From contig NOWV01000016.1 of assembly GCA_003344405.1 (NCBI GenBank), positions 620,001-684,000 on the forward strand: 64,000 nucleotides of DNA, given 5' to 3'. The notes under the pieces are model-generated. The model was given only the letters and a program-made list of their open reading frames with translations. It made no database searches and was not told where the DNA came from. Within the stretch, counting starts at the first letter, position 1; the number at the start of each line of letters is the position of its first letter. Source of the DNA: Trichoplax sp. H2. Its lineage: Eukaryota. Shown here in pieces: positions 19,402 to 64,000 of this stretch. A program made the translations under genes and the position numbers.

Positions 19402-20245
19402 TTTTTCCATGGATGTTGAGCAAGATCTACAGTAGTCCTATATTATGACTGTTCAGGAGATGATTGAGCAAGGACTACTGAAAATGAATGCCTAAGCCTA
19501 GCAATTACCATACCAACGGGACCGGACCGGAACGGACCGGACCGGACTGCCAACCCCATGCAGTGCTCGCTGGACATTTGGTGCTTTGCAGTTACTGTGT
19601 ACAGTACCATGAATTGCATCCGACTACAGTTAGCAGTACAGTAGAGAGCCGAGTGCATATGGTTGGTCATTTGACTGTATCCAAAGACTGGTAATGAACA
19701 CAGTACTGTGCGCAACTTGATATAGCATAGGTCAAACGGCCAGTCAGCCTGCACATTTTTGCTAATGAACAGTTATTAACGGCCTCTCTCTTTCTACTGT
19801 AGTGTGTTGAGTGATCCCTGAGACCTCTTTTTTTTTTTTTCCAATTTTGACGTACAGTACAATATGTCTTCAAAGAAAGAGAGCAAGACTGCCAACCACT
19901 GCTCTTTGCCCAAAATGTGCAGGCTGACTACTTGATAGGTCATTGGACTGTATCGCAAGACCGGAACCGTACACTGTACAGTGGCGTTTGCAATAAACTA
20001 GGAGGGCCTGCTTTGGAATGCATCTGCCCGGTACAGTGTACAGTGTACGGTGTACAGTGTACAGTGTACAGTACCGTAAGCACAGTCGGACGGTAACCGT
20101 GATTTTTCGTCTCTCCACGACACTGATATTACCGGACTACAGTACTGTCACCAATACCATGACTATACGATAAAGCAAAAAGCCTTGCAGTGGGACTGCA
20201 TGAACATGCAATGTGCAGTACTGTACAGTACACTACGAGTGTGGA

Positions 20246-32543: not shown

Positions 32544-33866
32544 GGCTCATAGAAATGGCGATTGCAATAACAAAATTAATAATTTATTTTTGTTTTCCTC
32601 CAACTTTTTAACCTGCGTACATTCATTACATGAATTCTATGTACATTAAAATGACCACTAAATTTTGAGTTGTTGCTGTAACAATTTCATACAACAGTTT
32701 TCACATTTCGTCAAATTGATGAAAATTATATTGCAAACAAATGCAGTCAATCGATAGGATACACAGCTGCGACTGTCTGAGAGTTATAAGATGTCACCGG
32801 CGACTGAGTAACTATTCTAGTAGAGAAGGCAAATTTTCAGTCACAACGACGTAATCCGAATATCATAAATAGTCTACCACATAATTAATATTATTAGCAT
32901 AATCATAATGATTAATAAATTAATGACAGATCATTAAGAAAGTTGAGAATCACGTAAATATAGTTGTAGGCGATGATACAGTGATGACGAGATTCCAGAA
33001 TTTCTAGAGTATGCTGTACAAGTGTAGTGTACATGCCATACTGCAGCATTGACAGAAACAATTGAACTAACACTTAATTTATGAAAGGAGAAAGTGAAAG
33101 ACGAGATAGAATTTATCTCTTCAAATTAGACGAAAATCGAAAATCATCTATCAATGACTGGGATTTTTGAGTAGCAATCTGATAATGGGTGATAAAAACA
33201 AACAAATAGGCTTTAACATTCGAGAATGCCAATACAGGCGTTCGTTACAAATAGCAATATGATCAGTTTAAGGGCTATCCAATGATACGCCTAGATACAG
33301 TACGCTAATACTGGCAATCATCTGTAATATTGACTAAACTGGTAATATAAAGCAAGCCTGTGATAATCGATTGGCAGCTAAATGTACAATTCTATTTTTA
33401 AAGTTGCCAGCACCACGCGTACAATATACTCTAGGTTATCGTAATAATTTGAATAAGGGTGGCTATAGAATTTGTAGCAAACGTCTACACAACCACATCC
33501 ACATACACATGTATAGGCCAGTAATTACTATGCATCAAATGCGGCAATCTATGTTTTACTTGATTCTGTTTTGAAGTAGTACAGTAAGTATCCTGCTGGA
33601 AAAAATGAACCACCCCTTGTTTTTAAGCCTAATTCCTAGTGATTAGTCTATATCCATAATTCTATACAGTATCCCATAAATGCTTATAGGATTAAATGAC
33701 AGCAAATACTAAGAATGATTAATGTCCAATTATATACGATCGTAGGACAGTTCTACATATGCATACACATAGGCTTTGATAAAATGAAATAATATAATAT
33801 CACGCGTGGTCCAACTAGAAAATATATATTACTCGATGATCTACCAGAAAGTCCTTGAATAAGTTC

Positions 33867-36800
33867 TTAACGCTGACTTTGATGAGTATGCATGTGTCTT
33901 CGAAGATCGACTTTACGTGGAAAAGCACGGCTACAAATTTCACATGAGAATGGCTTAAATCCTGTATGCTTGCGGCTATGAGTAATTAAATTCGACGATT
34001 GACTAAATGCTTTACCACACAATGTACATTTGTGAGGTTTTTCACCAGTATGAATATAGGTATGCTTTTTCATATCGGATTTTTGATGAAATCTTTTGCC
34101 ACAATATTGACAAGCAAAGGGTCTTGTATTGGTATGGATTAACATATGAGTAGATAGTGTCGATGATCGTTTAAAAATCTTAAAACAAGTCTTACATTCA
34201 TAAGACTTAATATTCGTATGCACTGCCTTATGTTGCTCTAAACTAACTCGATGTCCAAAGGTTTTTCCACAGGCGTCACATTCGAACGGTCTAACACCCT
34301 AGAATGAATTGGATTATATGAAACGAAATGACAGTTAATGATCGTATACGCATATTAGAGCTTAAAAATTTCATTTCTTAGCAATTTTTCAACGTAACTC
34401 TTAACATAGATAATCGAAAATGATACAACACTATATATAAAGTAGAATACATAGCATGAAATAGTATGATACCAACACTAGGCTAAACTGAATCATCCTA
34501 GCTTAACATTCTTTTACATCCGTATAATACTACTTACAGCATGAGAGCGCCGAACATGAATTTCCAATCCATGTGCCGTATTGAAACCTTTCTTGCAAGT
34601 AAAACACTCGAACGTTTCACACGAAACCTTTCCATTACTTATGGAATCACAATTATCTTCCACATCTAAATCTTCGCTATTTTTCGATTCGTGGTCAATG
34701 AGTCGTGTCTTGCCTAATTTATCTTGATTATCCTCGATACCTTTTGTTGATGTAATTTCTCGGTTTCTATCTGTATTACGATAAATTCCTTTAGGAAATT
34801 GATTTAAATTCAATGAATTGAGCGATTTGTTGTATAAATTATTGGCTGCAGTCACAGCAGCCGCCGTTGTATAATTGCTGATAGCATCTTTACGCCAGCA
34901 CATATGTGGTGCTTGATAAGGCCAATAGCACGACGGAAAGGGAGGTGCTTGCCCACCGAATAAATATGGATGGCGAAAATTGACGTAGGACAGTGGTGAT
35001 ATTTGAGAAACTTGATGTGTCATATTAGGATAATAGACTTCAGGATAAGTAGCTTTAGGTACAGCGATATCCAAACGATTGTTTGATCCTAAAATTCAAA
35101 AGGAACAATTAAACACACTTTGTGAGTATTATTCGCTTGCGTCTATTTAGAAAACTGAGCTCAATAAATGCGAAACACTTTTATACTATAATACAATAAA
35201 ACAGTTTTAGCTCATTCAAGAAATAATTTGCATCGTATAGGAAAATCTCATCATTAAAAAACTGTTAAGCTTGGAGTAGATCTCTTGAATTATAGTTCTC
35301 TATCTTAGATCACTTATTCAAATAATATAAAGATGAAACATATTATTACGGTGAAATTAAGCGGCTCACGAATATTTCAGTATGATAATACGCATAATAC
35401 GACATTTCTATAATCGAAAGTTATATTCCATCCTATTTTATTAAGAATAGACTATTGCAAAAATAAAAATAAAGCAGATCTCCATCATAATTAAAATAAG
35501 TCAAGTAAAGCGAAACTCATGCCATAATAAATAATATGATAACCCTGGAATCGTCATTACATGTAGCCATGAATCAATGTCCCAAAATCACTGCTAAGGA
35601 GCTATAAGGTATGATAGACTAAGTTAAGTTAAAATCTGAGCTCTTTTACGGTAAAAAAAAGGGTAAAAAACCGATAGAAATAAAATAATATTTAAAAACT
35701 TTGAATCAGACTAATGTAACAGCAATAGCGAAATCTTCTCTTAAAACAGCCGTAAGTAAATTTATTTTAAATAATAATTATTATAATCAATATACCTTAA
35801 CGGAATTGTTAAATGATTTATTCAACTATGTCGTGAAATTTATATTTTCAGGTACAGCCATAACAGTCAAGGATAGTGAACTGGAATGTAGTCTAAACGC
35901 GTACTATGTAAAGCAGATATTTATATAGGAAAAATTCCTATTTATCAAGCGTCCTTACAAAAAGTCAACGTATGTATTTCCGCATTCTGCAAGAAGTTGA
36001 TTGGGAAATGAAATATTGATTGTATTGTAAAGCAATCATTATCATAAAAAAATTCTACGTCGAAAGTATTACTAACCTATTATAGTGTATCACGATATTA
36101 TCAATAGAATTATAAATTTAAAATTATTATTGACAATCAGTTGTGAGAAAAATTTGCACATGGACGTGCAATCAATGGGATATGATAAAGGATAGAATAA
36201 AATAACGATAATAACCTTTCTCAAGAGGGATTATAATTATTAATGAGATTTTATGTCTTAATGAATAAATCAAGAGTCAATATTGATGACTACTTATTAA
36301 TATAATTAAAATATTGGCCGTTGTCTTGTGTATCATCATTTTCTCCAATTGAAAATTATAGAAAGTAAAAGTATAAAAAGTAATAAATGCATTATTATAA
36401 AATGTACTGTTCAAATCTCATCATCAGTATTATAGAAAATCATTTATATAGAAAAATAAAAGAGTTAATGATCGAACGGATACAAATTATGCTATGTAAT
36501 TTTCTTTTTTAGTCGATTTTAATCACTCAGCATAGTCATTACGATCAGAATCAATAGGCAAAGAAACATAATTAACAGTTTTTGTGCCATTTCCGTTAGG
36601 AATTATTTTGGAAACGCTATTTAAATTACTTCCTTAAACGTTAGCTAGATAATTTCAAGGCTATAAGCTATTTTAATCCTTAGTAGTAATCATTTAAGTC
36701 ATATCGTGTATTGCTCAAAACTGCGCATATTAATGGAAGAGAATACTATGATGCTGAAACAAAATATGGCTAAGGACTATATTATAGGTTATAACTCAGT

Positions 36801-38522
36801 TAATAAATAAGTATTAGTCATGATAGAGAGAATTTCGTATAATTTGTCTAATTTGAAAGTATTAACAGAAAGTCAAATCGAAAACTCTTGGGAATAATCT
36901 CATTCGACAATTATAAAAATCATTATAAGCTAAAGTGTAGGGAGTGCTTAGCTATTTCTATTTTCTGTTTATAAGCGGTAATTTTACAATCAAGGAAGCA
37001 GATGTAAGTGATAACGATGGAAATTGAGAATAATCAACTTAAACTGTCTATAAATCTCAACATGACTGGCTGAAAATGTACCAGAATATCAAATAACTTG
37101 TGGCAATCTTGATTTAACGCTAGTTAGAGAAAGGTTAAAAAAATAAAATCATCGTCATCTCTCTGATCATAATGTCTCAGCTATACAGCAGACATTTTTA
37201 ATTAGTAGTATTATCCTTAACTATACTGTTGTTAAGTTAGAACACGTAATATTAAATGTTCGCTTCGTCTTGATGCCTTTGTGCCGTATGTAATCGAAAG
37301 CAATATTTTTCTCTATTTTCGAAAATATTAGAAATCCTTTCTCTTTTGAATTAACTGATACTTGCCATACATCAAGATGTATACCATTATTAATTAAAAT
37401 TCAAGGAAATTTTAGATATTATATCAATTTATTAGATAATATTCTCAATTCTGTTAAAGTAAAAGCAATAGATTTATAGTTGATGAAAATAGGATGAGAA
37501 TCTACATCTTTTCATGACTGATTAATTAAAGACAGTATTAAGATGATAATAAACAAATATAAATAAATTGCAATACAGAGTACCGACAATAGAATTAAAA
37601 TTAGATAATGTTATTAATAGATTATCTCTTCCTTGTGATGGTGGATAAATTAACTATACTTCAATCTCTTACACCAATGATGACATAATCTCAATCAAGT
37701 TAAATTACTTCTCTTGTAGCTAGGAAAGACGGAATGTTGATGAGAAGAGATTTATTACTCGATCTGGAGAGTAGTATAATGTGGCCCTAGATTGGATTGA
37801 TATCGTGTGTTTATACAAAAAAAAGGCAATATAGTAAACACGGAAAATTGCATCCGATATTGAATAGCGTCTGGGTGCAGAAATATTGACAACGGTTGCA
37901 TTTATATTGTAAATAACTTTAAATTTATCAATGTAGTAGGCACTCATTTCATTTACATGCAACACGGATTAAAATAACAGAACTAAATTTGGCGGAAAAT
38001 GTTAGACTTTATTATCCCTTTTCATAAAATAAATCATTCAGGGGAAAAAAATAATATACCTTCAATGAATTGAAATTTTTCGTTTGATTAGACTAAATAC
38101 ATTAAAGTTAAGTTAGAAACTATACCGCGAACAAATAACCTTTCAACAAAATCAAATAAAATTAATGTAACTACTATTTAAAATACGTGTTATATTGGAA
38201 ACTTCCATTTATGATCTAATTACGTTAGTTTAATGCGTGACATTTTAGAAGTTGTCAAGAGAAAATTGACTTGATTCTTAACTGCAAAAACAAAAATATG
38301 AGACTTCGTAGTTATTATCAACTTGATCGTAATCATTATGCGATGGAAAGATTTATGCGTATGACTATAAATTTTTCTCTCAATTTTGGCTAATATCGAC
38401 AAACTACAAACAGAAAATGCCTTACCTTTTAAATTAGATGTAGTATGAATAAAGTCAGATGGGTAAGAAGAGTTGGCCAGGTTCATTTTATTCTTGATTT
38501 TAACCAGGAAAGATTTTGGCAT
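33867..38522 (-). CDS. GFI1: Gfi1/senseless/pag-3 family SNAG plus six C2H2 zinc-finger repressor, 359 aa; exons 38426-38522, 34538-35088, 33867-34298
   Basis: SNAG motif MPKSFLVK. Fingers include [78 protein letters not shown] and RKVDLRRH, diagnostic of Gfi1. Phases 1 and 0 fit, total 1080 nt. Confidence 0.97.
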
Positions 38523-38599
38523 CGCTTGTTATTCTTGCAAGACGGAAAATGATTTTTTTTTTCTTTCTATTAGTAGTCACCACGGCAGGTTAATCTTTT

Positions 38600-39028
38600 C
38601 AGGTGGGTGTTGGAAGTGTGTTGGCTAGATCAGATTTGATGGAGCATTTATAACCCTATTGCCTCCTTTTATGCACCTAAAATCAAGATATGAAGAAAAA
38701 GTTGTAGACAACGAGTAACAATCGGATGCAACAAACTTCTGTGTATACAGTGTGAGAATAGTGGACAAATACTTTGAGACTGATATTCATTATAGATACA
38801 ATCGGAGAATTATAATCAATAATTTTGGTTTATAATATTACCACTGAATGTAATATCATTGTAAAAGAAAAGGAAAAGAAATTGTAACATCATGTACATA
38901 TTTAATAAACTGTATTATCAGCTGGAGTAGGGGCAGGTGAAAAGTAACTCACGAACAATGAAATATTTATTGTTGTCGGCTTGTTTATTGAAAATTGTTA
39001 CAGCTGTCAATCTATGCTGTCCACCTGC
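38600..39028 (-). promoter_or_regulatory. Putative GFI1 promoter: TATA box, CAGSTG E-box cluster and CSL-type site
   Basis: TATAAAT (minus strand) 38646-38652; E-boxes at 38600, 38919, 38934, 39001 and 39022; TGTGAGAA at 38751-38758. Confidence 0.55.
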
Positions 39029-42000
39029 AAGAATTCTAAACATGATGCTAATATTTAACTACTCAATCTAAGAGATTAAATGATGATGATCACTTTATCC
39101 CTAACTCAATTTAAATACTGTAAACTTAAGTAAATCAACTTATCAATGTAATATAAAAATGGACAAAATCAATCGATCATCATTATCAACTCATAATAAT
39201 ATATTAACCGATATGCATTTAATTTGATGAAATAAAAAATTTTATTAGATATTATGATGATCAGTTTATAGCTTTAGCCAATGTCAGTTCCATTATGTAA
39301 GTATCAACATTCATAAATAGGATATTTAAAATCGATTGGCCTACAATACATATTTTACTAGTTAAAATTCTGAAGCCAAATCATGAGAGTTGAAAAAGGT
39401 AAATCAAAATAGGGAAATTACTACAGATAAATATCGGTGTGTCATTGATGGCTACTATGATCAAAATTTATGGATAAAAAATGTAATCGATTGAAGCAGT
39501 CAATTGCTTTATCAGTAATATATATTTATATTTTATGTGATTAAGGCACTGTAGCACTAAATTAAGGTTTGTTAATTCCTTGTGATTATCAATCTAAATA
39601 CTTTTCATTTATGACCATTATTCATAGCCTTTGTTATCTATTAAGTTAGATTAAGAAATGAAATTATTTCTTTTCTTTGTTGCTAACCAACTGACAATAT
39701 CGCAATTAAAGTTTAATGTGATTTTTACTTTTATGTTATTAGTTACACTTGTGCAATCAAATGGGTCATTGGATTAAACGTAGACAATAACGCATAAAAA
39801 TACCAATGCTGCTTTAGATAGTTATTTTCTCAATACAGCTTGTCATGCCGTGATTTTTTCCAGACGATCATCGCTGGAATAATAAGCTATTGTACAATAT
39901 ATACATATCTCTATATTGTAAAGATAGCTATAAAAACTATTTCAATAATTGCTATCATAATTCACTGAAAATAATATTGACAATTGAAGGAAATGGGATT
40001 TAACAAAGTATCGCACTGTAACCATTTATACCTTTGATAATAAAATAATAATGCCTTACGTATATCAGCAGTATGTTATCCGTGTACATAAAAAATGCAG
40101 TTAAATCTTTAAACTGATATAACTCATTTTAGTAATTTTATTAAATAGTAATCATTATGGCTATGATTTAATAATAACAAATCTTTAAGCATGGCATGAG
40201 TTTACGAAATTATACATTTATATCGTGAACATGTCTAGTTACACTAAATTGAGGTATAGATGATGCAGTGATTAAATTAGTTTAAAGGTGACATTGAAGA
40301 CAGATGGTATACGAGTGATTTCCTGTAATAATGTAATAGGTAGTGAGATTATTGCAGTCACGACTTTAAATGAAAAGATTGAAATAGAGTACCTTATATG
40401 ATGGCTTAAACAAGATTTACTCGTGCTACACAATATGAATACTTTAGACCAGTGTGGAATAATTTGGTTACTGTCACCTCTCTCTTTCACTTAATAATGA
40501 CCATTAACATTTTACCCTACCAGAGTGCGGTACGTACTAACTAGTTAACAATTGGGAATCAATTTTGGAATCCTATAGTGTTAGAATACAACCTATTGCC
40601 ATTGCTTCATGCAGTCAATCTGTCATTATAAGCATGAGTAATAACGATATTTGTTTGGCTCACGCCTGAGAAAATGTTGCATACGTATCATTCCATTATA
40701 ATTGTAAGCGAATTTTGATAATACGCAATCATCAGAGGATTATCATCATTCACAGAAAATAATAGGGAACCCTTGGGGCACTATTATCATGTTTCAAATA
40801 TTTCTTCAATTCATTCATCTACTGATCTACTCGATCCCATCTGATATTATAATAGTATCTATCAATTTATCTATCTGTCTATTTTGTACTTTTCTTCCTT
40901 TCATGTCCATTCTAACCTAATTCGTTCACTTAACTCCAATGATGATAGAATTGTCAGTCCATTGAACGATAACGAATGAAGGACTCTCTCTCTTTTCATT
41001 CCATCTATTTCAGATGGTGTTAATGTGAATTTTTCTTAACTGAATGCTACAATAATCCATTTATTTTTTAACTTTCAATCTAAGAAAGAAAGTATACTTT
41101 ATTTGCAAACAGGCGGGTTATAATCTATCTCTATTGTCTTCTTTTGCCAATGTCAGCGTTTAATAGGAATGTAAAGTTTAAAAAAGATCGTCTATCATGA
41201 TTGCAGTTTTATTATGATGACGATACATCAACATTGGTTATACTCTCTACCATCTTGCAACTATGATGATCAAATAGAGTTTCAACTCAATCCAATATGA
41301 TCATTTTCAAGTACTCCAACTTGGCAATAGATGTAACAACGGATGGAAATTCCATACGATCAGTGCTCGACATTCCATCGTTGATTCACTTATTACAAGT
41401 AAATTTTTCAGATTTTTTAATTTTTAATTTTTCTGATTTATCAACCATTTGCCATGTTCTCACGTTAGTAAAGTAATTAATCTCTTTTATTGGCTAGCAA
41501 TCTAAATAAATGAATATAAAGCTTTTGTATTCTAGTTAAGCCAAGACAATAGCTTCTATTCTCTTTTTTGAATGGACCGTTAAAGCACAGACTAACTCAC
41601 TTAATACTCTGTCTGTTATGACGTGGGTTCGCCCGGATAGTACGGACAGACATAGCGACACAAGTAGCAAATTGATTACAGTTGCTAATCAGTCATTCAG
41701 AAGGTTATTTGCTCTAAATTGTCCTGATTTTAGCATTGTTGCCTATCCAATTTCTGCTTTGGATATCCTATCATGGTAAGAGAGTTTTTCTGGTCTGATT
41801 CAGTGAGATTTGATGGTCTGGCATTTCTAGTCATGCCATGGCTTCCATCGTGAATCTATCGTCCGCAGTCCGCGGTCCGTAACATGTATCTCTCCCATAG
41901 AGTTAAGAGAAAAAACCAACAATAACAAGTCTGTCTATCTGTATCTGGTCGAGAAGTCTGTACATCTGTATATCTGGAATAATTGGAGCTGCCTAGAAGT

Positions 42001-45000
42001 TCCTCCTAGGCCTTGTAGGCTAGAATGGAAGTGAAAGTTGAGAAGAAAGAAAATCTTTCTGATCTCTATCATATTACTAGAGATAAGAATGATATCCTAC
42101 CTGTACAATATACCTTACTTATAACCGTAGGCTGGTTGCTCTTCTATTTTTTTTTTTCTTTTACAGTTGTAAGAATGGCCACCTTTAATGTAATACATAC
42201 TGTGTCGCTGTAGGTAAGGACTATTTAGAAAGAGAAGCTATGCTTTCAGTTTGACACTCTCAGCTGCTTTCAACCAGCTGTACAGGTGGATCCATGGAAC
42301 AAATACCAGTTGAAATTAGCTATTTTGCCGTCTGGTGTCCTCTATACGGAAGACGGGGTTGATAGAGGGGCAAATAGCTAACTTATTAGCAATTTTTGAC
42401 CCTCTAGATCAAAGATATTGCAAGGCATTGAAATGAAATGCACGTATAATCTGTTCTATCGGTTGAAGTAGAAAGATTATAAAGTTAGATGATATTTTAG
42501 TTTATTATATTGGACTGGATCATATATGAAGTTGCTTTAAAGATAGCCTATTTTCATATCTGTCTAGCTAGGGTATACCCTGTAGGTACGTACAATCTAT
42601 CATGAACTACTAGATGCACTTAGTCGTCCACAGTACTATATATACTCGTAGAATAGAAATCTTGTATACGCTCGTATATTACCAAGATACAAAACTTATT
42701 TAATAAGTTTTCGAATCTGCTGTAGACATAAACACGATGATCTTCAATCGACATTATATGATCAGGCAGGTGTCCTATCAAGACATGTAGAAGCCATGAT
42801 ATATAAAGAAAAAAATCAAAGCGATAACTATAAATTGAACTACTGGATAATATACTGTACTTCAACGTACGGAAGAAATAGTTTACTACCTGACTCAATT
42901 TGAAGCGACAGTCCTTTGTATTTGGAAAGGTCATTTTGTAATTAAAACTTATGCATTTAAATAAATGATTTTATTAATTTAACACCTAGTTCAATACAGA
43001 TTTAGATTCAGTGTTCAATAATTATAAAGTTATGAATACATTTGATCCATCTGACTACACAAGCATTATGGATGGGTGGGCAACAAATCAAATATAAAAT
43101 TGACTACCATGTCATCATTTTATCTAATCGAAAATAAGATACACTACACCACGAACAATCTAATTTGTAATCAATACCATTGATAACTTTCAATAATAAT
43201 TTAGGTTATACACTATCTAATTATATCGATCCAATTAACAAAAGTTACTGTATTTAGTACGTTTGTTATTTTTACATTTTTTTCCTATAAATGTTGATAT
43301 GACGTTGAGATCTTTATACTGATACTGGTTAAAAGTAAACTATTAAATCATTAAGAGTATCTAAAGGCTGACATCTATAGATCCTTTTCATTCTGTGCAA
43401 CAAATAACTGCACTACATGACTACCAGTAACTTTAATCAAGGATTAATGCTTATCATGGTCGATTAGTAATAAAGCAGCCAACTATGATTGAATACATTG
43501 TTGCACCTGCTTGAATTCATCAATTTCCTTGTATTCTTATTTGTCAGGAAATAAAAAAAAAGCAGTTTCCCGTTAGGCGCATAATCTGATTATGGTTAGG
43601 ATTTAGCAATCAAGATCGCTCATTTTAAATATAAAAAAATAGAAATCAAGTTAGGATAGTGAAGCTCAATTATCCTTGCTCATGCTTAATTTCACTTTAT
43701 CCAACTTGATGATATTAATTCATTCGTACTATTTGCTTATTTGCATCTGATACTCATCATTTACGTTAATTACTGTTGTTATGAGTATTATAATTGCTAC
43801 TATTATTTATCATTATTAACTTGAAAAGTGATCATTTCTTCATCGATGCTTACACAAATTTTTACGAATTACGTCAATAACAGTACATGATAATGAAAAT
43901 GGGTTTACTAAAGATATTGGCTTTCTTTTATCGTTGATCTTTGCCATTTTAATTGTTTGCTATATTTATGATCCCAATAGATCTATTCAGCTAATAATCT
44001 AATGATATATAAGCTATTAAATTTAATGTTTATATCGTCTATCGTTATCATTCCCTGCCTATATCATCATTAAACAATGAAATCGTTATGCATCTGTCGG
44101 GGCTGTTCTAACATCCAATTCTTCATCATTTATTAAATATTAAACATTAAATAACGTGATCATTCACTTTTTAAATATTAATTATACTAATCAAGTTTAT
44201 TCTACTATAATTCTCTTTCATTCTTGTTATTAAGCAATCCACTTTTCTTTATTTAACTGGCATAATGCATAATTTATGCGTATTTCTATCGATATCACTC
44301 ATTATTTATTGATCTTTTTGCAAGATTATCCGTTACATTAACTTTTTTCTGTCAACAATTATAGCAACAAACTGCTCTATTTATCTATAGCTAAAATAAT
44401 CGCCGTTAGTAATCTGATTATGCCGGAAGCCAAAGTATCGATTAGGATTATTAAATAAAATCTAATCATATAAAATACTGCAACTTAAGATCGTTGTATA
44501 TCCTTTTTTAATTTATAATAATACTATTTTTAATTTTAATTATTCAATTTTATATTTACTAAGAGTTTTGTTGATAATAATATAATCTAAATGGACATAA
44601 ACATGATGTTAAGGTAGGGTTCGTGGTAGTTTATCTTAAAACTTTAAGAAACATCTATACAGGACGATAATAGAGATGGAGTACAGTAGTACATCCATAT
44701 ACATGATAAATCATTTTCTGTTCAATTACTCCTTTTCAATACCTATTTTTAATCTAGATAGATCATTCGGTACCTATGGTAATAGACCAGAGTCGTAAAT
44801 ATAACTGGCTATAGTACATATATCTTTAAATTTATCACAATGTAATCATCAGAAAAATCAAACAATCATTACCAAACAGTTAAAATTTCGATATCGATGT
44901 TAACTAGATGTCCCAGTACAATGATTATTATGAAATCTTTGATGAACAAAATTATCAATAATAATTATATGATACTACATTATATATTTTTAAACTACAA

Positions 45001-45228: not shown

Positions 45229-48200
45229 CTTTGATGAACAAAATTATCAATAATAATTATATGATACTACATTATATATTTTTAAACTACAAATAGCGGC
45301 TTTAGTCTATGACTTGGATTGCTTTACTCCTGTATTTCGCTTGCAGTCATATTGGATCTAATTAAAAGGAAATATGAACTAGTAAAGGATAAAAGCGGTC
45401 TTAGTCATAACAATCGATAATAGTAATGTTTTTCAAGTTATAGGCTGTATTTGCTCTGAGAGTAGACTTTTATTCATCGTTGATACAGAAATAAAAAACG
45501 CTACATTTTCTTTGTAATCTTTTAATATATTAAAAGAATTATAGTGCTTTTTATGTGTAGCATGAAATCACCTACATTCTATTTAAAGACACTTATTATC
45601 GATCTAAGGGAACAAACTACAAAAATGTTAAGATAGTGGTAGGATTAAAGATAACAAGTTGAAGTATCACTATTTCGTCTGTTTGATATAACTATTGTTA
45701 TAACCTGCAAAACTGTTTAGCTAATGATTTCGTGCTACAGTACCTTAATTTTAATAGTCTAGTGTAGTTTACTGTCAGAAAATTATACTTGTATTGATTA
45801 CACAACATGTATCGATATTATTAGCAAAATCTTTAGTACGCTATTATTCTAGTAACCTCATCTTAGTAGATAATACTTACAAACTTTAATATTTCATCAG
45901 AATTATTCATTATTAATTTTGACTTGATCACTCTTAATTACTTTAACCGATTTATGATAAGATTTATTAGCAGCACTGTATGAAACTGTATTTTGACAAT
46001 TTGGTCGGAGTTGTTGCATTATATATTTTGGTTTATTATTTTCAAGGCATAAAAATTAAAAGTTGAAAGCAGTGCGTGTAAAATTTCAACGTATTTTTAG
46101 TCCCGCTTATGCGATTTGATACTACGCTGATACGGTCATTTTCTATATCATTTATCCCTCCCAACTTACGTCGATAATCATAACAGATGGCTACATCATC
46201 GTCAGAATAGCGCCGACATTTAAATAATTGATCAGGTACATAAAGGTAATAATAATGATCTTGGATGCAATCATGCGAATTATTACCGAAGTCTTTTATT
46301 TCCGATAAAACTATAATAATTTCGTAGCATTCAAAAGAAAATTATTAAACTTCTATCATTGAATTTTTTTACTATATTATCTATTCTGTCTCCTAATATC
46401 TATGAAATATTATCTAAAGAGTATATAATAAACGCATCCATAACATCTCATACTACAGTATTAAACAATAAGTATCAATGATAATAACTGTCATTAGTAA
46501 AACGATATAAAATATTCCTAGAATATATTCCTATCATGCTGGTTTAATATATCGTCTGTTGACATATTTTCTGTTAAAACGATGATACAAGAATCCTTCA
46601 TTGACATGATCTTGGTGTCAATTATTATAGTCGTAAGGTAAAACTAAAAGCTGGATATCCTTGAATGTCGTTATTATTTATTTCCTGGTTTCTGGGCCCT
46701 AAATCTTCAATCCTTAATAAATATTTTAATATTATCGGAAGATAAAGTATAATTAAAAGGGTAACATCAGCGCTAGCAAGTCAAATCAATTTTCTACTGG
46801 CGCTATTGTAGATTGATTGACAATAGATACCGTAGAGAGAACAACTTAATTAAAATTTATAGTATTCAATCTGATTGTTTTATTATTTACTTTTATACAT
46901 CATGATCGTCATTAATGCAGCAACTATTCATACTTTAACAGCTGCAGTACTTTATTTAATCTACGCATAAGCAGCGGTTAAATTAATTTTAGTCTTTAGC
47001 TGTATTATATTAGATTACTACTTTACTTCGAGTGAACTTACATTGAGAAATCTATCTAAACATAGTTAATTAAACTAATTCAGTACAATTATTTTAAACT
47101 AATCTCTCTCTTATAACCCATTATTTAATTGAATTCATTATTAATCAACTGGACTGATATAGAAGGATTACCGTTAAAAGAATGCTTAGAGATTAAACAA
47201 GATTTGGTATTAAAGATCGGGTTTATTGATAATTAAATCCTTCCTTTAATCTTAATAATCAACATTAAGTTGAAGGCTACTTTTTAGGCTTTTATTCATT
47301 ATTGTCTAAATTATAATAAAATAGTAAATGTAGGGTAAGCATAGAGCGAACGGGCTACAGTATTTACCCTCAATTTTAATGCTTTATTGCGTTGGAAATG
47401 ATCAATTAGATCATAACTGATGTAACCTTTACTCGTAATTTAATAAATAAAATGATATTATTTAATTAAAACTGTGTAAATACGCAACTAGCAGTTGAGT
47501 TAATAATTTGATTCATCATTACTCCCTCACTCGCAAAATTAAACAGAGATAATTGAGTTAAAAGTGGGAATGTACATTGTAATATTATTTTACACGCTGC
47601 CTTGTATCAACTTCTTTGCATTATATACTATGTATTATTATATTGAACGTATAAGTATCGATATAAGTCAGCTTTTCTCTCTTAATAGACCTAAGACTTT
47701 GATTATTGTCACAATAATAAAGGGATCAAAGTTGTCTAGACCCCGTGGTTGGGTACTTTTAAAACTACAGCTGGAAAGTATTAATATTTGAATTCATACC
47801 AGAGTTATATAGGGATGGTAGTTAAAAAAACTTCACTATTATATAAATCATGACATAATCATCCCGACAGAATACCTAAAAGTTGCTATGATAAACTTCA
47901 AGTTAAAGCATGAATAAATCACTAGAAGGTATCTTCACGAGCAAATTTATTCGCATTTAAAAAGTACATTAAAAATTATTATGATTTCAAACAAATGTGA
48001 ATAACCAAATGACCCGTGTTGATGTAGTTATTATGAAGATAAGTTAGATTTCGATCGATCTCAAAAATCAACGTTTAAGATTTATCTGTTATAGACTATA
48101 CGAGTATATGAATACAGCTTTATATAGATAGTCGACTTATTGCAAAATATCAACGACGGATTATCTAAACGAATGAGATTAAATACATTATGTACGAGCG

Positions 48201-48599: not shown

Positions 48600-51500
48600 T
48601 TAATTAACATAAAATTGGATTATCTTTGGTGCAATATTGAAGAAAATTGAAGAATTTGCTCTTCATTAGTGTCTAAGTTTCGCAATAATTGGTTATAATT
48701 TTCTTGTCGTGATTTCAAGTGAGCACCAATGATAGAATTCTTAAAAGACAATCTATAAGTAGAAATTGCGAACAAAACTCAGAAAGTCATTTTTTATTAT
48801 TTAACTTTTCCTATTACTTAAGAATTCCTCTTTCGTAATAAATGGGTTCAGATCTTACATCCATATATGTAATACCGTCACCTGTAGGTAATTGAATTAC
48901 TATGTCATTTAGTTGTCTATTAGATTTCTTATACTCACATTGTTATAAGAATAACGGCTAGTAACTTCCATTGTTTATGATTTAATGAAATGTTATCCCT
49001 TGATAGCCTAAAAAAATGATTCAATAAAACGTAGCTTTTAAGATTTTACAGTACGAGATCAATAATCTTCAGTAATACGATTGCTATTTAAAATATTGCA
49101 TTGAAAATATATTTCGTCGGCGTTGTCATGATTATAAGAAGTTTTAACTTTATGCTGTAAGCGAGTTTAGGGTTATTCTAACTTGAAATATGCTAATCTC
49201 GAGATTTACAATAAATAAATATTTCACGGCAATAATTCTATTACAATTAAGGCCTATTGTAGAAAATATACGTTTGTTTATTAAATGACGAGATGCAGCG
49301 TCCCCTAAACACTAACAATATAAAACGCGATAGTAGACTTTATTTTAAAGCATACCACGTACCTGAAAGTACGAATCAGATCAGTCATATCTTGTCGAAT
49401 ATCACAATAGATGAGATTAAGGGAAGATAGCGGTTCCCGTAACCTATCATGAAAATTAATGATGCGTTATAGTCAACGAACAGCCGTCAATATCGATGAT
49501 GCATGTGTCATAGTCGTATTTAATTGAAACTGAATGAGCATGAATTACTACATACACATGCTTTCTCTACTCATTTGCTCTAACGGCATTATCTTGCAAA
49601 TAAATGCAATTGTCAAATAAATTGTGGAAAAATAGCTTTTTAAAGTACTTGATAACTAAAATAGAAACGACGTTTTGCGATACACCTAACTACAATAAAT
49701 AGCTCTGCAGTGCTCTAAATATATTATCGTTATCCTGTATTACAAATTGTCAATGCTAATGCTGCTAATAATTATATACTAAGGTCACATGAAATATAGG
49801 GAGATTTTACAAAACTATAGGAAAAGAATAACACTAGTAAAAGTTTAAATAGTACTGTACTCATATAATATAATAACAAGCGCAGGAACTATACACAATT
49901 TTAAGTCTCTTTTGTAAGCTATCTAAGATCGCCTGTCTAATGTCATGAGAATCCAATTCTAATGACAATATGAAGCATCTAAATAGATTTATTGAATCTA
50001 TTACATACCCTTTTTTTATACGATCTAATATAATATTCCGACGTAAAGATGCCTGATAGTTACTTGAATGCAGAGGTAGATAGACGTCAGTTTCCTGTAA
50101 AAGTTTTAAAATTAAACTTTAATTTCATAAATTATTTCATAAGATTAACACATCAGCTATACCTGTCTTTCCGGTTCAGCCAGGTTCTCTTTGGAGATAG
50201 ATCTGTCATGACTCCCATTCTTCGATAATTCAGGTCTACAATCTCGCGTATCATCTATTTTCCAAGAATCCTTTGCTATATGTACAGTGGTTTCAGTTTT
50301 AGAATCACAATTAGGATTATTTAAATCTGCGGGCATTAAGAAATTTTTTGTTTCAGTCGTGCTCCATTCCTGTAAAACATGTATTATTTTTGCATACGGA
50401 TCAGTTTTTTGTGGAACAACAACAGTAGGTTGCATAACTGGGAGAGTGCGACATGGGTCAAAGGTATTTTTTAATTTACTATTAGAATGAAAAGATTGAT
50501 ATTGATGATTGAATGCATGATCGACATCAACACTGGGAATATCGTCTGCGAATAAATCTTCTTTCAATTTAGTTTCTTTGATGTTAACAATCGGACTGAT
50601 ATTCTTCGACGACGAATAAGGTGACGGTGAATCATGATGCATTAACAGAGTTGCATCTAATTCGCGTTTATTGTCGGTCTGTGTTAGCTTTATTTTAGAT
50701 CTTTCAAAGTCTTCCTTTATGGAGGTTGATTCCTTTATTTTATTATTGGATTGGCGTGATAATTTATATGAATTATGACTACCCAAATCGGGTTTAGCTT
50801 CATCGTTTATTTTAAGAAGGTCGACATTGTTGGTAATCAATGTTATTTCATGATCATCTGCTGGTAGTTTGGCACTGTAAATTAAATCATATCAACCTTG
50901 AATGACGCATGGTTTTGATAGATTGTGACAATGTATCTTAGATTTATCAAATTTACACAGTTGCAATTACAATAGGTTACCTTGATTGTTCGTCAGAAGA
51001 TAAATGCTGCAGCAAAACTATCTTGTTCTTACTAAGAGATCAAATAATAAAATACAGCAATATCATATACTGTAATAATAATAACTGTAAAGTACCATTT
51101 ACAGATTTGCTAATATAAATGATAAATGGCAGTAAATCTGCATTTTCAGTCTCATCAGCAGATAAACGGTGAAATTATTAATTATACGGTTTCAAATAAT
51201 TTCGAGTTAATGGTCAGCCTGTGTAGAATGAAACTAATACAGTGGATATTGATGCACGATAGCAACTTTTCATGTAATACGTACAAGCAGGTGGGCATAA
51301 TCATTAAAGCTAGCCCTTGTTGTAATACTTACATTTCGTGGCGCCCCCATAATGGCTCTGTCGATAACTGTTTAGCAAAGAAATTGGAAGCTTTGCAGCA
51401 GAAATTGCTACAAAACCTCTAGATTTACACAGAAAGAAAAAATGTGTTTAAAATCTGCTACTTTAATCAACGTAGTTATATTAAGTTGTTTTCAACTTAA

Positions 51501-52854: not shown

Positions 52855-53006
52855 TTCAGTACTGTAGCGATTGCACCCTCTCATTGTAACCTTCACGTAC
52901 AGTACAGTACAGTACTGTACTGTACGATACGCTACGGTGCGATACGGTACGGTATGGTGCGGTACGGTACGGTGCGATACGGTACGGTGCGATACGGTAC
53001 GGTACC
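52855..53006. repeat. (CAGTA)n / (CGGTA, CGATACGGTA)n microsatellite in the RPAP2-RABGGTB divergent region
   Basis: GTACAGTACAGTACAGTACTG...GGTACGGTACGGTGCGATACGGTACGG repeated. Confidence 0.88.
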
Positions 53007-53959
53007 CGTGGTGAGTGACACCCCACCAACTTGGCAGATCCCCAACTAACGCTATCACTCTGGTTGCCATTTCACCAAGCTTTTCGATGCAGAATGCAAA
53101 TGGCCAAGTAACATTAATGGAGGAAAGTACAGTCCTATCATAGAAAATAAACTCAATCTTCAGTCTAATTGGGTAGACCGACAAATCGACTAACCTGTAG
53201 ATCAAATAGTACCGCTGTTTTCTTGAAGATACAAGACAAAAAATTACTTTTTGCTGACGTCCATCCATCATTCATTTGGACTGCGTGCAAAGTCATTCAA
53301 AGAAAGGAAAGACCCATTTTATTAGGTATATATTTGAGTAACGTCTACTTATTTTGAGAGTATTCTTCTAGTAGAAGTGACAATATGATGTATTATTGCC
53401 ATTGATGAGCTTGTGAAAATGTCGTCATACTATTTTGCAATAATCATCGCTTATGGTCGTGTCATAAAGTCCATCATTTCAGTCATGATACGCATAGGCA
53501 TCAGCATGGACTACTACTGTAGCGAAGTAGTTCAAGGCATCAGGGTTACCGGTGCATGACTCTAATTTTGTTATGCAGATAGAGGTAAAAAAAGACATTT
53601 TACCTCTATCATTTTACAATAATAACCTCAGCTTTTGATCATGTTATATAGAGTTGATGATTTTCTCTATACCAATGTTTTCCCACCCTAACCTATTTTG
53701 TTAGAATCGTTGCTTATAGTCATGTCATGAAGTGAGCCATTTTATCTACAATAATATGTCAAATGCTAATACTGAACTGAATTTATGATAATCCTTACTG
53801 AAGGGTCATGTTGATAAAGCTGATCATTTATCTGTAATGCTGGTCATAATATATAGGTGCTTCAATTTTTGGATCTCAAGGAATAGAAAGAAACCTGGTA
53901 TCGTGCCTGCATATTTGGCTTTAAATTACTATAAGAAGCACCCTACTGAATCCATTGTT

Positions 53960-56900
53960 ATGGTAAGTTAGGTCAATTGGGATTTAGTTTACTACATAGA
54001 ATTCATTAAGTTAAGACTAAATGCAGCCATCGAAGTTACACAAAGAAAACAGCCTCTACTTTCTGTCATATCCTATCGACTATTACGTACATTTCATCGT
54101 TTCCATAGTTATTTTATACGTCACTATTGGATAAGTAACTTAGTAGCGAAGCTACATATCAAGCATATCATTGATTCAGATATCAGCAATATTGACCACG
54201 GTATAATGTACAATATTCTCATTTTATTCAACTGTCCTACTCATTGTATCAATTTTAATAACCTTATTTGTCCTTTTCTACCATTTGTAAACACTCATAA
54301 TAGGGAACGCCACAGAGTGATATCGAATTACCGGTTAATTCACCTGTGCAATTGTGGAAGCTAAAACATCGAGACTATATTGTCAATTATGGCAAAAGTA
54401 AAGACGATTATGTAAGTTCTGTAAGGTGATTTCTTAACTTCAAAACAATTCTCCCTTTTCTTTTATCATGGACATGCTCATACCCTGTCAAATGACAACA
54501 ATTTACACCGCCATCACGTAATATTTTGCATGAGAAAAATAATTAATAAAAATATCTCCCTTTGTCGGGACAAACTAGATTATAATGGATGATAATTTTA
54601 AATTTGATTGATAATTTATAATAAACTAGGAATACTGTATGTCGGAATATCTTCGAATCAATGGTGTCTACTGGGGGATTACAGCTCTTTGCTTATTAGA
54701 TCAACTCGATCAATTAAATAAAACTGAAGTTATAGACTTTGTGAAATCATGCCAGCATCCATCAAGCGGATTTGGCGCTAGTCCCAATCATGATCCGCAT
54801 ATCTTATCTACTTTAAGCGCAATCCAGGTCAGCCATGAGAAAAAGTGTAGACAGTTTAATTTTATCTGTTATCCTTATTTATAGTGGCCTTTTATAGCAC
54901 CAAAGCTACGTACTGCATAGCGCACTGTACTTAGCCAAAGTGGGAATAACTTCATTAATACATTCTAAGCATCTGGCTACATGTTAGTAATATTTCACAT
55001 TGGTAATACTACCTTGCAATGAATTGATAATTATCATTACTTTGGTGGATGATTATCAAAATTGCAGGGGTGTGGATAATTTATGCACTCTAGTATAGTT
55101 TACTATTGCTACTGAGTGATTTGATCACAGCCGGTTACCAATAAATTTTTAGTAGTTCACAATCTAGTGAACAATTCGTAGTTTCATAAGACATGATGGC
55201 TAATTTTTTAAATTCTTTAAAACAACTATAAATTATAAATTAGATCTTAACAATTTATGATGCGGTCGATGAAATCGATGTAGATGGTGCCGTCAATTTT
55301 ATTCATTGTCAACAGCAGAATGATGGCTCGTTTTCTGGCGATAAATGGGGTACTGTTAATCGACCTATAATAGAATTATAACGGTGATTTAGACTTTATT
55401 GAATGACATAAAAGCGAAGCAGAAATTTACATAACAATATTATTGCATTCAGTATACCCATCGATAGGCTAGGGTAGAGTTTTGATGTATTCTCTACTAA
55501 TATAGCGAAAAAAAAAGAGATGAACTAAATGAAATTTCAACATTTTACCTTTCACATTAGGTGAGATTGACAATCGGTTCTCCTTTTGTGCTCTAGCTTG
55601 CTTATCGTTGCTTGTAAGTAATAAAAACAAAAAGAGATATCCAGATATTCTTATGTAATAATTAATGATGATATTCGAACGTTAGATTCCGTTTTACAAA
55701 GTACTTCATTACAAACGGACATTAATTCTTCCGTTAGTAGTTATTGGAGTTTAATCATCATAATTAAAGTATAGAATACAAGCTCTGTTCATTTATTGAC
55801 GTTTCTTGAACAATTTTATAAACAATAGTTTTAATTATATAGTTTAATATACTGCAGCATGCCGGCATACAATTGTCGTATAATATTGATAAGTTAAATA
55901 TTATGTATAATAGATAAGATTAATCTTTGAACTCTGTAAATGATGGGTAAAAATGTTAGTAATAGTTTTTTAATGTTTCGTAATCAATATTTATATTTTG
56001 ATCGCGTAGTTTGAAACAATTCTATTTTCTATATGGTTGGCTTATTTATATATAGGGACGTTTAGATGCTATCAATGTCGATAGTGCTATCGATTTTATC
56101 TTAAAATGTATGAATTTTGATGGAGCGTTTGGTTGTAAGCCTGGTTCGGAATCCCATTCTGCTCAAGTATGTAATACTTAATAGTATAATTTGTATCACT
56201 ATTGGATAACTCTCTATTGTTGCTAGATTACCATATAAATTCTGTTAACCACGTTAAGTAATTACGGTTTCCTTTGCAAATAATTTAATTGCAATTAATA
56301 TAAATTAACGGAAGATATTATGTTGATGCAATATTTTTATAAATGGATTGCTTACAGCACTACATTAAAATTCGTAATAAAGATTTTTGTATTAACGTTG
56401 AAAATAAATTCTTGTATTAAGTGTGTGAGCCATTTTTATCGGTAAGGTAACATGCTTATGCTAAACAATACAGAAATTGCTCGTCAATAAACTAGTAACT
56501 AATTTGATAATCGCTTTAAACCAACTTTATCAATTTAGGTCTATTGCTGTGTAGGATCACTAGCAATCACAGGACGCCTTCATCATCTAAATATTGATGC
56601 ATTAGGCTGGTGGTTAAGTGAAAGACAACTTCCTTCTGGCGGATTGAATGGTATATTGAAAAGTCGCTGTTTTAATATTTATCACAAGTATTAAAGTAAA
56701 ATTGGGATTACATGTAATTAAAATAAGAAGTTTATACGGTGTTTGATTTATCTATTATTTAATTGATTTATGTATTGCTATATAAATAGGCAGGCCTGAG
56801 AAGTTACCTGATGTATGCTATTCATGGTGGGTTTTATCATCATTGGCTATTATCGGCAAATTACATTGGATTAACAAAGTAAAAGCAATTTTATCAAGAG

Positions 56901-57224
56901 ATAATATCTTTCGTCATTGCCCAGAAAATTTATTATTGAATCATATCCTGTTGACTAAAATTAATTAATGATATTTTGCAACTATTGTTCTTATTTTTGA
57001 TTGTAAAGGAGAAATTAATTAACTTCATCTTAGCTTGCCAAGATGAAGAAACTGGAGGAATTGCAGACAAGCCTGGCGACTTAGTTGATCCATTCCACAC
57101 TTTATTCGGTATTGCTGGGTTATCATTACTTGGGGATACGACCTTAAAACAAGTTAATCCTGTCTATTGCATGCCAGAAGAAGTTATACAAAAACTTAGG
57201 TTAAAAGTCCAGATGCTAAATTAA
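53960..57224 (+). CDS. RABGGTB: Rab geranylgeranyltransferase beta subunit, 331 aa; exons 53960-53962, 54304-54411, 54630-54827, 55244-55349, 55561-55613, 56056-56166, 56539-56650, 56790-56878, 57009-57224
   Basis: M|GTPQSDI...[107 protein letters not shown]. The exons sum to 996 nt. Confidence 0.97.
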
Positions 57225-60200: not shown

Positions 60201-60434
60201 CTCATCGTTGTAAGCATCTTGCTGGTTGTGGTGGCGGAGGTAATACTGTATCCTATTTTGAAAAAGCTTTTTGCAAATTCAGTTCTCATTTTTCCCCATT
60301 GATTACCCTTGACGTGGCTCCTTTTTAAATATCAACAGGACGTTCAAATAGAAAATAAATTTAAAAATTGTAGTCACTTGTTATTCATAACATTTTAGTC
60401 CAATTCTCTTATTTTATTTTCTATCAGACAAAAA

Positions 60435-63400: not shown

Positions 63401-64000
63401 GAGTCTTTGCTATTATCACCTGAATGATGATATATGTGAAGAATTTGAGGAGAGAGTTAGTCCTCATGATTGTGGATTTTATACACCGAAAGGATTTCGT
63501 GATCAATGGGCTTCTCATGCCGTTGCAAATCCCGAATTTCAAGGAGAAAAATGTAGCGATTTTGAAACATTATTATTAGGACCTCCATCTGTTGATCAAG
63601 TAAATGGCATACTTTACTAATTATTGAATGCTATTTTTATAATATCTTATACTTAAAATATCGTAAAATGTTAAGTATTTTAACTACAAAGTTAACTTAT
63701 GGCTTTCTTTTCATTTTTATTGTTTTATATCAGAAATGTACATCTAATCTGGATATGAAATCGTTTTGGCAAGAACTTCCTGTAGCTTGGTATCCATGCG
63801 GTCATCATTATGAAGATGCAAATTTTTGGATTCAAGTAAGCTTCCAGCGTTCAGTTGTTGCATCATCAGTATTGATCTATTTAGCTACAGATGGCAATAT
63901 CGTATTATATACTAAAAGAGTAAGGATATATGTTCAACTAATCGATACAGAAGATAACGTTCACGAAATTACACCTAATGGTATCTTGGCATCATGCAAT
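60435..64000 (+). CDS. PAPPA: Pappalysin (PAPP-A family metzincin, M43B), 3' partial; exon 60435-63599, next exon from 63734 past the window edge
   Basis: Signal peptide, RYPR candidate furin site, LamG-like domain, two LNR modules (YDGGDC, WDDGDCC), zinc motif HEIGHNLGLWH, GDLCSDTAPTP, Met-turn NFMSY and FCGNG..CDDGN..DGDGC repeat. Donor CAA|GTAAAT; the next exon (AWYPC, FWIQVSF) stays open to the end of the window. Confidence 0.95.

Follow-up and report, generated by a model that had tools for sequence, protein, structure and literature searches.

An E-box cluster upstream of the Gfi1/senseless orthologue in the placozoan Trichoplax sp. H2: a candidate cis-regulatory module

In Drosophila, senseless (sens) is one of the known direct targets of Atonal, and the sens enhancer is ectopically activated by Ato (PMC2910651). 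In hair cells of the mouse, ATOH1 acts on Pou4f3 and POU4F3 acts on Gfi1 (PMC10939501). Placozoan peptide-secreting cells employ much of the neuronal gene set in an animal without neurons. A literature search found no paper on placozoan Gfi1 or its regulation. E-box modules of Gfi1/senseless genes are already known, and the one described here is a candidate module of this kind at a placozoan Gfi1.

The module was found in a 64-kb stretch of genomic DNA of Trichoplax sp. H2, which was analysed at its full length and is called the window in the following. The first-pass annotation had described four proneural-type E-boxes and a CSL site upstream of GFI1/senseless, and had proposed a bHLH/Notch circuit acting on Gfi1, possibly in secretory or peptidergic cells of a placozoan. 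From this interpretation, the placozoan origin, the identity of the gene, the position of the boxes, their non-random clustering and the fit to peptidergic cells are retained, whereas the Notch/CSL part and the term 'proneural-type' are given up.

The Gfi1 gene and its transcript

The minus-strand frame 33867-34298 codes for five C2H2 fingers and is 100% identical to a protein of 359 residues (P0110) with the source name 'Zinc finger protein Gfi-1b [Trichoplax sp. H2]', which bears out the supposed placozoan origin. This protein also includes the SNAG motif MPKSFLVK (pattern MP[RK]SFLVK), which begins on the minus strand with the ATG at 38522. By Pfam, five zf-C2H2 stretches are located in exon 3 and one in exon 2, and the solved fingers 3-5 of Gfi-1 (2KMK) align in a single stretch of 82 residues with an E value of 1.4e-44. 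The relatives of high identity (65-80% across the fingers) are Gfi-1/Gfi-1b proteins of cnidarians, vertebrates, a brachiopod and a mollusc; the best named relatives all belong to Gfi-1/Gfi-1b. Because of the protein match at 100%, the SNAG start, the match to 2KMK and these relatives, the earlier assignment of the gene as GFI1/senseless of a placozoan holds. The gene downstream of the boxes, with a SNAG start and six C2H2 fingers, is the Gfi1/senseless orthologue, and the E-box cluster lies on its 5′ side.

For the transcript, the contigs mapped on 33000-43500 were taken from three RNA runs and from one DNA run. Spliced RNA contigs from two studies connect 34297 with 34537 and 35087 with 38425, both with GT..AG ends on the minus strand, and from these two joints a gene of three exons is deduced (Table 1). 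The 3′-UTR extends below 33000 in the RNA contigs. On the other side, the 5′ ends of the RNA contigs are found at 38585 and 38604 (two studies, two organism labels) and no joint is seen further upstream; such ends indicate the start of transcription only weakly, and the contig terminating at 38604 also bears a fold-back artefact. The position of a TATAAA hexamer fits this hint, yet 70 such hexamers occur on the gene's strand in the window. Contigs of the three RNA runs give zero cover in 38616-43500, which is not to be taken as evidence for an untranscribed region. Within the 5′-UTR a haplotype difference was noted at 38543-38555 (two substitution places, a TT-to-GA change and a 2-bp deletion). 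This haplotype is common to an RNA contig of one organism label and a DNA contig of the other.

Elsewhere in the window, the open frame at 60399-63620 (plus strand, 1073 residues) contains Laminin_G_3, an LNR (Notch) repeat and the metzincin motif HEIGHNLGLWH, and is predicted to encode, within one long exon, a pappalysin-like metalloprotease. On the plus strand at 54630-57224, exons are located of a gene like those for prenyltransferase beta subunits (Pfam Prenyltrans, E 8e-14 and 6e-16). Pfam searches with the ORFs upstream of Gfi1 at 41540-41779, 42620-42970, 46042-46341, 49861-50118 and 50157-50891 gave no match, and the upstream 11 kb contain no ORF with a Pfam match. Likewise, no Rfam family matches in 38500-43600.

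Table 1. Features of the Gfi1 locus, in positions of the window
Feature	Position	Strand	Remark
Gfi1 exon 3, coding part: zinc fingers 2-6 and stop	33867..34297	-	Pfam, RNA contigs
Gfi1 exon 2: linker and zinc finger 1	34537..35087	-	Pfam, RNA contigs
Gfi1 exon 1: 5′-UTR and SNAG-domain start, ATG 38522-38520	38425..38604	-	RNA contigs
Fifth box, CAGGTG, at RNA-contig 5′ end	38600..38605	+	
TATAAA on the gene's strand, ~45 bp upstream of RNA-contig end	38647..38652	-	weak
Single CSL-type site TGTGAGAA, GTGAGAA form	38751..38758	+	chance frequency
Proximal module of four CAGSTG E-boxes, spanning 110 bp	38919..39028	.	motif search, RNA contigs
E-box 1, CAGCTG, palindromic	38919..38924	.	
E-box 2, GCAGGTG	38933..38939	+	
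Three Sox-type AACAAT cores (38954 +, 38969 -, 38994 -)	38954..38999	.	between two E-box pairs
E-box 3, CAGCTG within palindrome ACAGCTGT	39001..39006	.	minus strand fits RACASCTGY
E-box 4, CCACCTGC; minus strand reads GCAGGTGG	39021..39028	-	fits GCAGSTGK
Distal E-box group: CAGCTG 42261, CAGCTG 42275, CAGGTG 42283	42261..42288	.	three boxes in 28 bp

The E-box groups upstream of Gfi1

All six motifs listed in the first-pass annotation were found exactly where it had placed them, and the low GC content it had noticed amounts to 0.285 across 38001-40000. With the RNA contigs ending at 38585 and 38604, the four-box module is placed ~315-425 bp upstream of the transcript, in agreement with the supposed position 5′ of the gene; the distance to the ATG of Gfi1 is 397-506 bp.

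As the window contains 25 distinct CAGSTG sites in 64 kb, 0.04 sites are expected per 110 bp, far fewer than one, as had been estimated. Four CAGSTG sites in 110 bp were obtained in none of 2000 dinucleotide shuffles of the whole window and in none of 1000 shuffles inside 2-kb blocks, and three sites in 14 of 2000 and 6 of 1000, respectively. The motif had been picked by eye in the window, and therefore all families were enumerated. In this look-elsewhere control, comprising 18,432 hexamer families of equal degeneracy, the 6130 families with 15-40 sites were compared. At least four sites in 110 bp are reached by 86 of them, 83 of which fall in three tandem-repeat zones; non-repeat clusters this tight are thus formed by only 3 of the 6130 families, CAGSTG included. 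In 38523-39300 all five CANNTG hexamers are of the CAGSTG type, compared to 25 of 211 across the window. The region 38523-43600, whose bounds were set post hoc, makes up 7.9% of the window and holds 10 of the 25 CAGSTG boxes (binomial P ~1e-5). None of the 25 mapped sites lies in the 3.3-kb first intron of Gfi1. The four-box cluster is non-random, and the enrichment check, run on the 64-kb window, places it far above chance in the shuffles.

All cluster and motif statistics were computed on this window, and the genome-wide figure is a Poisson extrapolation, which yields ~0.4 four-box clusters by chance per 95 Mb, the size we assumed for the genome. By this figure a genome may contain one or a few such clusters by chance. 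The cluster could accordingly have arisen neutrally in this lineage, as an accident within a long intergenic region, a view to which the choice of the motif by eye from one window also lends weight. We consider such a functionless cluster unlikely: it would need to have landed less than 0.5 kb from the start of Gfi1, the fly orthologue of which is a listed target of an E-box factor, the second group of three boxes is needed in addition, and the E-box family tops an unbiased ranking at the Gfi1-like genes of other animals (see below).

Another origin is suggested by ACAGCTGT at 39000-39007 and CTGTACAG at 42277-42284, which look like junctions of ACAGT/ACTGT units. The boxes would then have arisen from the ACAGT/CTGTA promoter microsatellite known in Trichoplax, from a mobile element or from a different repeat. 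The three tandem-repeat zones contain none of the 25 CAGSTG sites, at the cluster TRF and a repeat finder revealed neither a tandem array nor a sequence with a second copy, and the cluster is spanned by a DNA contig whose depth is ordinary (28.8). With no CAGSTG in the repeat zones and no array at the cluster, the origin from the ACAGT microsatellite was rejected, and a repeat origin of any kind is extremely improbable. The three zones themselves (~1-520, 19500-20100 and 52890-53010) are rich in GTAC-containing pentamer-like units and are probably the ACAGT promoter microsatellite of Trichoplax. The region upstream of Gfi1 is free of such GTAC-pentamer tandem repeats.

Further characterization of the boxes can be done by their flanks. 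The consensus of Scute is GCAGSTGK and that of Atonal is AWCAKGTGK. Only E-box 4 matches the Scute string in full (1/4), and none of the four boxes matches the Atonal string, by which the label 'proneural-type' proves too specific. A third string, RACASCTGY, which was used in PMC2910651, fits one box out of four. The three AACAAT cores were spotted post hoc, and the last one (38994, minus strand) adjoins E-box 3. At least three such cores per 110 bp are present at only three places in the window, in which AACAAT occurs 104 times.

The distal group is located ~3.66 kb upstream of the RNA-contig end and ~3.3 kb from the proximal cluster, in surroundings with a GC content of 0.40-0.43. Two short inverted repeats at 42328-42412, with arms CCGTCT...AGACGG and CCCTCTA/TAGAGGG, adjoin this group. 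As single-stranded DNA, 42250-42420 folds with -27.1 kcal/mol (z -3.9), and an equal fold was obtained in 0 of 200 shuffles. AGASGG is also among the only three families whose tight clusters in the window lie outside repeats.

For the proposed Notch input, a single TGTGAGAA at 38751 is available. It would allow a combined bHLH and CSL input, in the form of a Notch-responsive element or of a PTF1-type site bound by PTF1A, an E-protein and RBPJ. In favour of such an input, PTF1A, TCF3/4/12 and RBPJ/RBPJL are markers of peptidergic progenitors (PMC10580291 mmc3 sheet d), and the number of progenitors rises under Notch inhibitors (PMC10580291 section 14). Against it, YGTGRGAA is found 7 times in the window where 5.26 are expected, with at least 7 in 30 of 100 shuffles, and the site is single and of the GTGAGAA rather than the GTGGGAA form; GTGGGAA is absent from 38523-43600. 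The distance to the box at 38600 is 151 bp and that to the box at 38919 is 168 bp. In PTF1 elements the TC-box is located one to three helical turns from the E-box, a spacing which both distances far exceed. Neither TTCCCA nor TGGGAA was found near either box group, and the only TGGGAA in 38523-43600 is at 40553. A Su(H)/CSL Notch-response element is not supported, since the motif is not above chance and the site is unpaired, and neither is a PTF1 bipartite E-box/TC-box element, since no CSL/TC-like site comes closer to an E-box than 151-168 bp. The Notch/CSL half of the earlier proposal is hence dropped, and a joint input of bHLH and CSL proteins appears very unlikely.

There is also no case for autoregulation by Gfi1/Sens: RCWSWGATTTR has 0 matches in 38523-43600, and AAATCAC occurs in this region only at 39718, 39850 and 40315. 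Regarding Pou4-type sites, one TAATTAAT was detected at 41474 and none convincing near the module; in such AT-rich sequence this search has no test power.

Gfi1-like loci in other animals and expression in placozoans

The DNA contig of the second placozoan label covers 37936-43500 with 99.4% identity, and because of this similarity the comparison of the two placozoan labels has no power to detect conservation. A scan of metagenome contigs with the Gfi1 protein returned 80 related loci, in seven of which the Gfi1-type fingers are preceded by a SNAG start codon. These are L001-L004, L007 and the pair L009/L011. The proteins of L001-L004 are nearest to coral Gfi-1b (78-83% to Pocillopora/Porites proteins), and the term 'coral-like' used here for these four loci is assigned from protein identity alone.

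At least one CAGSTG box is present within 300 bp upstream of the SNAG ATG in all seven loci, and two boxes in six of them. In L001-L004 a CAGSTG pair is located 156-220 bp upstream of the SNAG start codon. Here TTCACCTGT is invariant in the alignment of all four and forms the border of a conserved promoter block; further upstream L004 diverges from the alignment. Within L001:3265-3745, L002:1838-2318, L003:3499-3979 and L004:298-778, the highly conserved stretch of ~200 bp before the ATG contains TATTGTAAAACGACC as well as a TTTAAAAA box. An ATTGT core is placed 3 bp before the invariant CACCTG in three of these coral-like loci, similar to ATTGTT-A-CAGCTG in Trichoplax.

Motif families were ranked by their over-representation in the proximal regions, the background being each short contig's own density and not the promoters of other genes. 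The E-box family takes rank 1 of 18,432 with Trichoplax included. When this family was specified beforehand and Trichoplax was left out, it again took rank 1 of 18,432 across four loci. Across three less related loci, again with Trichoplax left out, it took rank 6 or 19 of 18,432. For all these comparisons it should be considered that L001-L004 share ancestry and that the contigs are short. The occurrence of the motif family at other Gfi1-like genes is a direct observation, as are the motifs in Trichoplax, their non-randomness, their position relative to the transcript and the identity of the gene.

The expression of the gene can be taken from the published single-cell tables of PMC10580291 mmc3, in which TrH2_TrispH2_002671 (GFI1/GFI1B), corresponding to the window positions 33867-38522 on the minus strand, is assigned to module TrH2.saddlebrown in community gc013 'peptidergic_mu'. 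This agrees with the earlier guess of a role in peptidergic cells. The module has 55 listed genes including many GPCRs and POU4F1/2/3, and the 'peptidergic_mu' community as a whole is very rich in GPCRs (PMC10580291 mmc3). Pou4 belongs to this community in four of four placozoan species and Gfi1 in three of four, with the Gfi1 genes of H. hongkongensis and HoiH23 likewise in its modules; for T. adhaerens H1, mmc3 contains no GFI1 row. In the main text of PMC10580291, neither Gfi nor Pou4 is mentioned. The pairing of Gfi1 and Pou4 in 'peptidergic_mu' is reminiscent of Pou4f3 and Gfi1 in the hair cells of vertebrates.

The Gfi1 module of Trichoplax sp. H2, with its 55 members listed in mmc3, includes no bHLH gene. 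TCF3/4/12 and a PTF1A-like gene are found in pan-peptidergic modules, and four ASC-like genes in peptidergic modules (PMC10580291 mmc3). An ASC-like gene accompanies Gfi1 in the 'mu' community in H. hongkongensis only (Hhon_g00682; PMC10580291 mmc3). The E-protein, the PTF1A-like and the ASC-like proteins are candidate readers of the boxes. In addition, Sox1/2/3 and Sox4/11/12 are markers of peptidergic progenitors, and Sox motifs are enriched in the regulatory elements of these progenitors (PMC10580291 section 14). The three AACAAT cores at the module are consistent with this reported role of Sox proteins.

The boxes may also be read by proteins of another class. CAGGTG/CACCTG is the classical core of Snail, Scratch and ZEB, whereas CAGCTG is not known as the preferred core of Snail/ZEB. 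Two of the four proximal boxes are CAGGTG and would be equally good sites for Snail, Scratch or ZEB, and five RCAGGTG sites are present in 38523-43600. If such zinc-finger repressors were the main readers, they would hold Gfi1 off in epithelial or other peptidergic cells, either alone or in competition with bHLH activators. Genes for such factors are present in placozoans: Trichoplax has one snail and one scratch gene (Kerner et al., PMC2688512 Table 1). In PMC10580291 mmc3 one SCRT/SNAI-family gene is pan-peptidergic in three species and one belongs to a dorsal-epithelial module, and ZEB1/2 is listed for two species. On the other hand, CAGCTG accounts for two of the four proximal boxes and for four of the seven boxes of both groups, and the family ranking first across lineages includes CAGCTG. 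We hold it improbable that repressors mainly read the boxes. In the case of competition with bHLH proteins, repression would refine the reading as a bHLH-driven module rather than replace it.

Proposed mode of action and comparison with known systems

The reading we find most likely, with confidence and doubt in about equal parts, is that of a promoter-proximal module read by class-A bHLH dimers, which would activate Gfi1 in the course of peptidergic differentiation. The identity of the binding protein, activation by its binding and the cell type of action are what we infer in this reading. The four boxes would serve as promoter-proximal cis-regulatory module of Trichoplax Gfi1/senseless, and the likely dimer would consist of an E-protein (the TCF3/4/12 orthologue) and an Achaete-Scute-like or another protein of the Atonal/PTF1A superfamily. 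Sox factors may cooperate via the three AACAAT cores that separate the two pairs of boxes, and the distal group of three boxes 3.7 kb upstream may assist. Occupancy of the boxes would turn Gfi1 on as epithelial-derived progenitors become peptidergic cells, and this switch would act particularly in the GPCR-rich 'mu' type, which co-expresses Gfi1 and Pou4. If a bHLH protein drives Gfi1 here, the link between proneural bHLH proteins and Gfi1/senseless, together with Pou4, which ranks among the best known in the specification of sensory cells, would be older than neurons. For testing such a pre-neuronal link, the module offers a short and concrete DNA element.

Like the proneural-bHLH-responsive enhancers of Drosophila senseless, the candidate module of Trichoplax presents class-A E-boxes as a group in cis to Gfi1/senseless. 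No sequence homology is claimed by this comparison. Unlike the fly enhancers, the Trichoplax boxes carry Scute-type flanks in one of four cases and Atonal-type flanks in none, as measured by the consensus strings given above, and unlike the fly, Trichoplax is without neurons. With the coral-like loci L001-L004, the Trichoplax gene shares CAGSTG boxes in a proximal upstream position at a Gfi1-like gene, the likeness being one of motif family; these loci differ in having two boxes instead of four and in having them nearer to the ATG. The AACAAT cores between the E-box pairs resemble the combination of SoxB/SoxC with proneural bHLH proteins in neural progenitors of Nematostella. In contrast to a progenitor input of Sox and bHLH proteins, Gfi1 is found in the terminal 'mu' module and not in a progenitor module.

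The vertebrate cascade of ATOH1, POU4F3 and GFI1 brings a bHLH protein together with Gfi1 and a Pou4 factor in a single type of sensory cell (PMC10939501), and its placozoan likeness is the common 'peptidergic_mu' community of Gfi1 and Pou4. A difference is that the direct activator of Gfi1 named for the mouse is POU4F3 and not ATOH1 (PMC10939501). Other animals provide a partial precedent for the activation of Gfi1 by bHLH proteins. Tentatively, and with less confidence than we place in the bHLH-driven module as such, E-box input to Gfi1, possibly with Sox, and in company of Pou4 may represent a pre-neuronal sensory-secretory kernel, whose cis-logic of E-boxes closely upstream of Gfi1 would still be visible in placozoans and corals and would have functional counterparts in flies and mice. 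If this holds true, the GPCR-rich 'mu' peptidergic cell of placozoans and the mechano- and chemosensory cells would be sister cell types.
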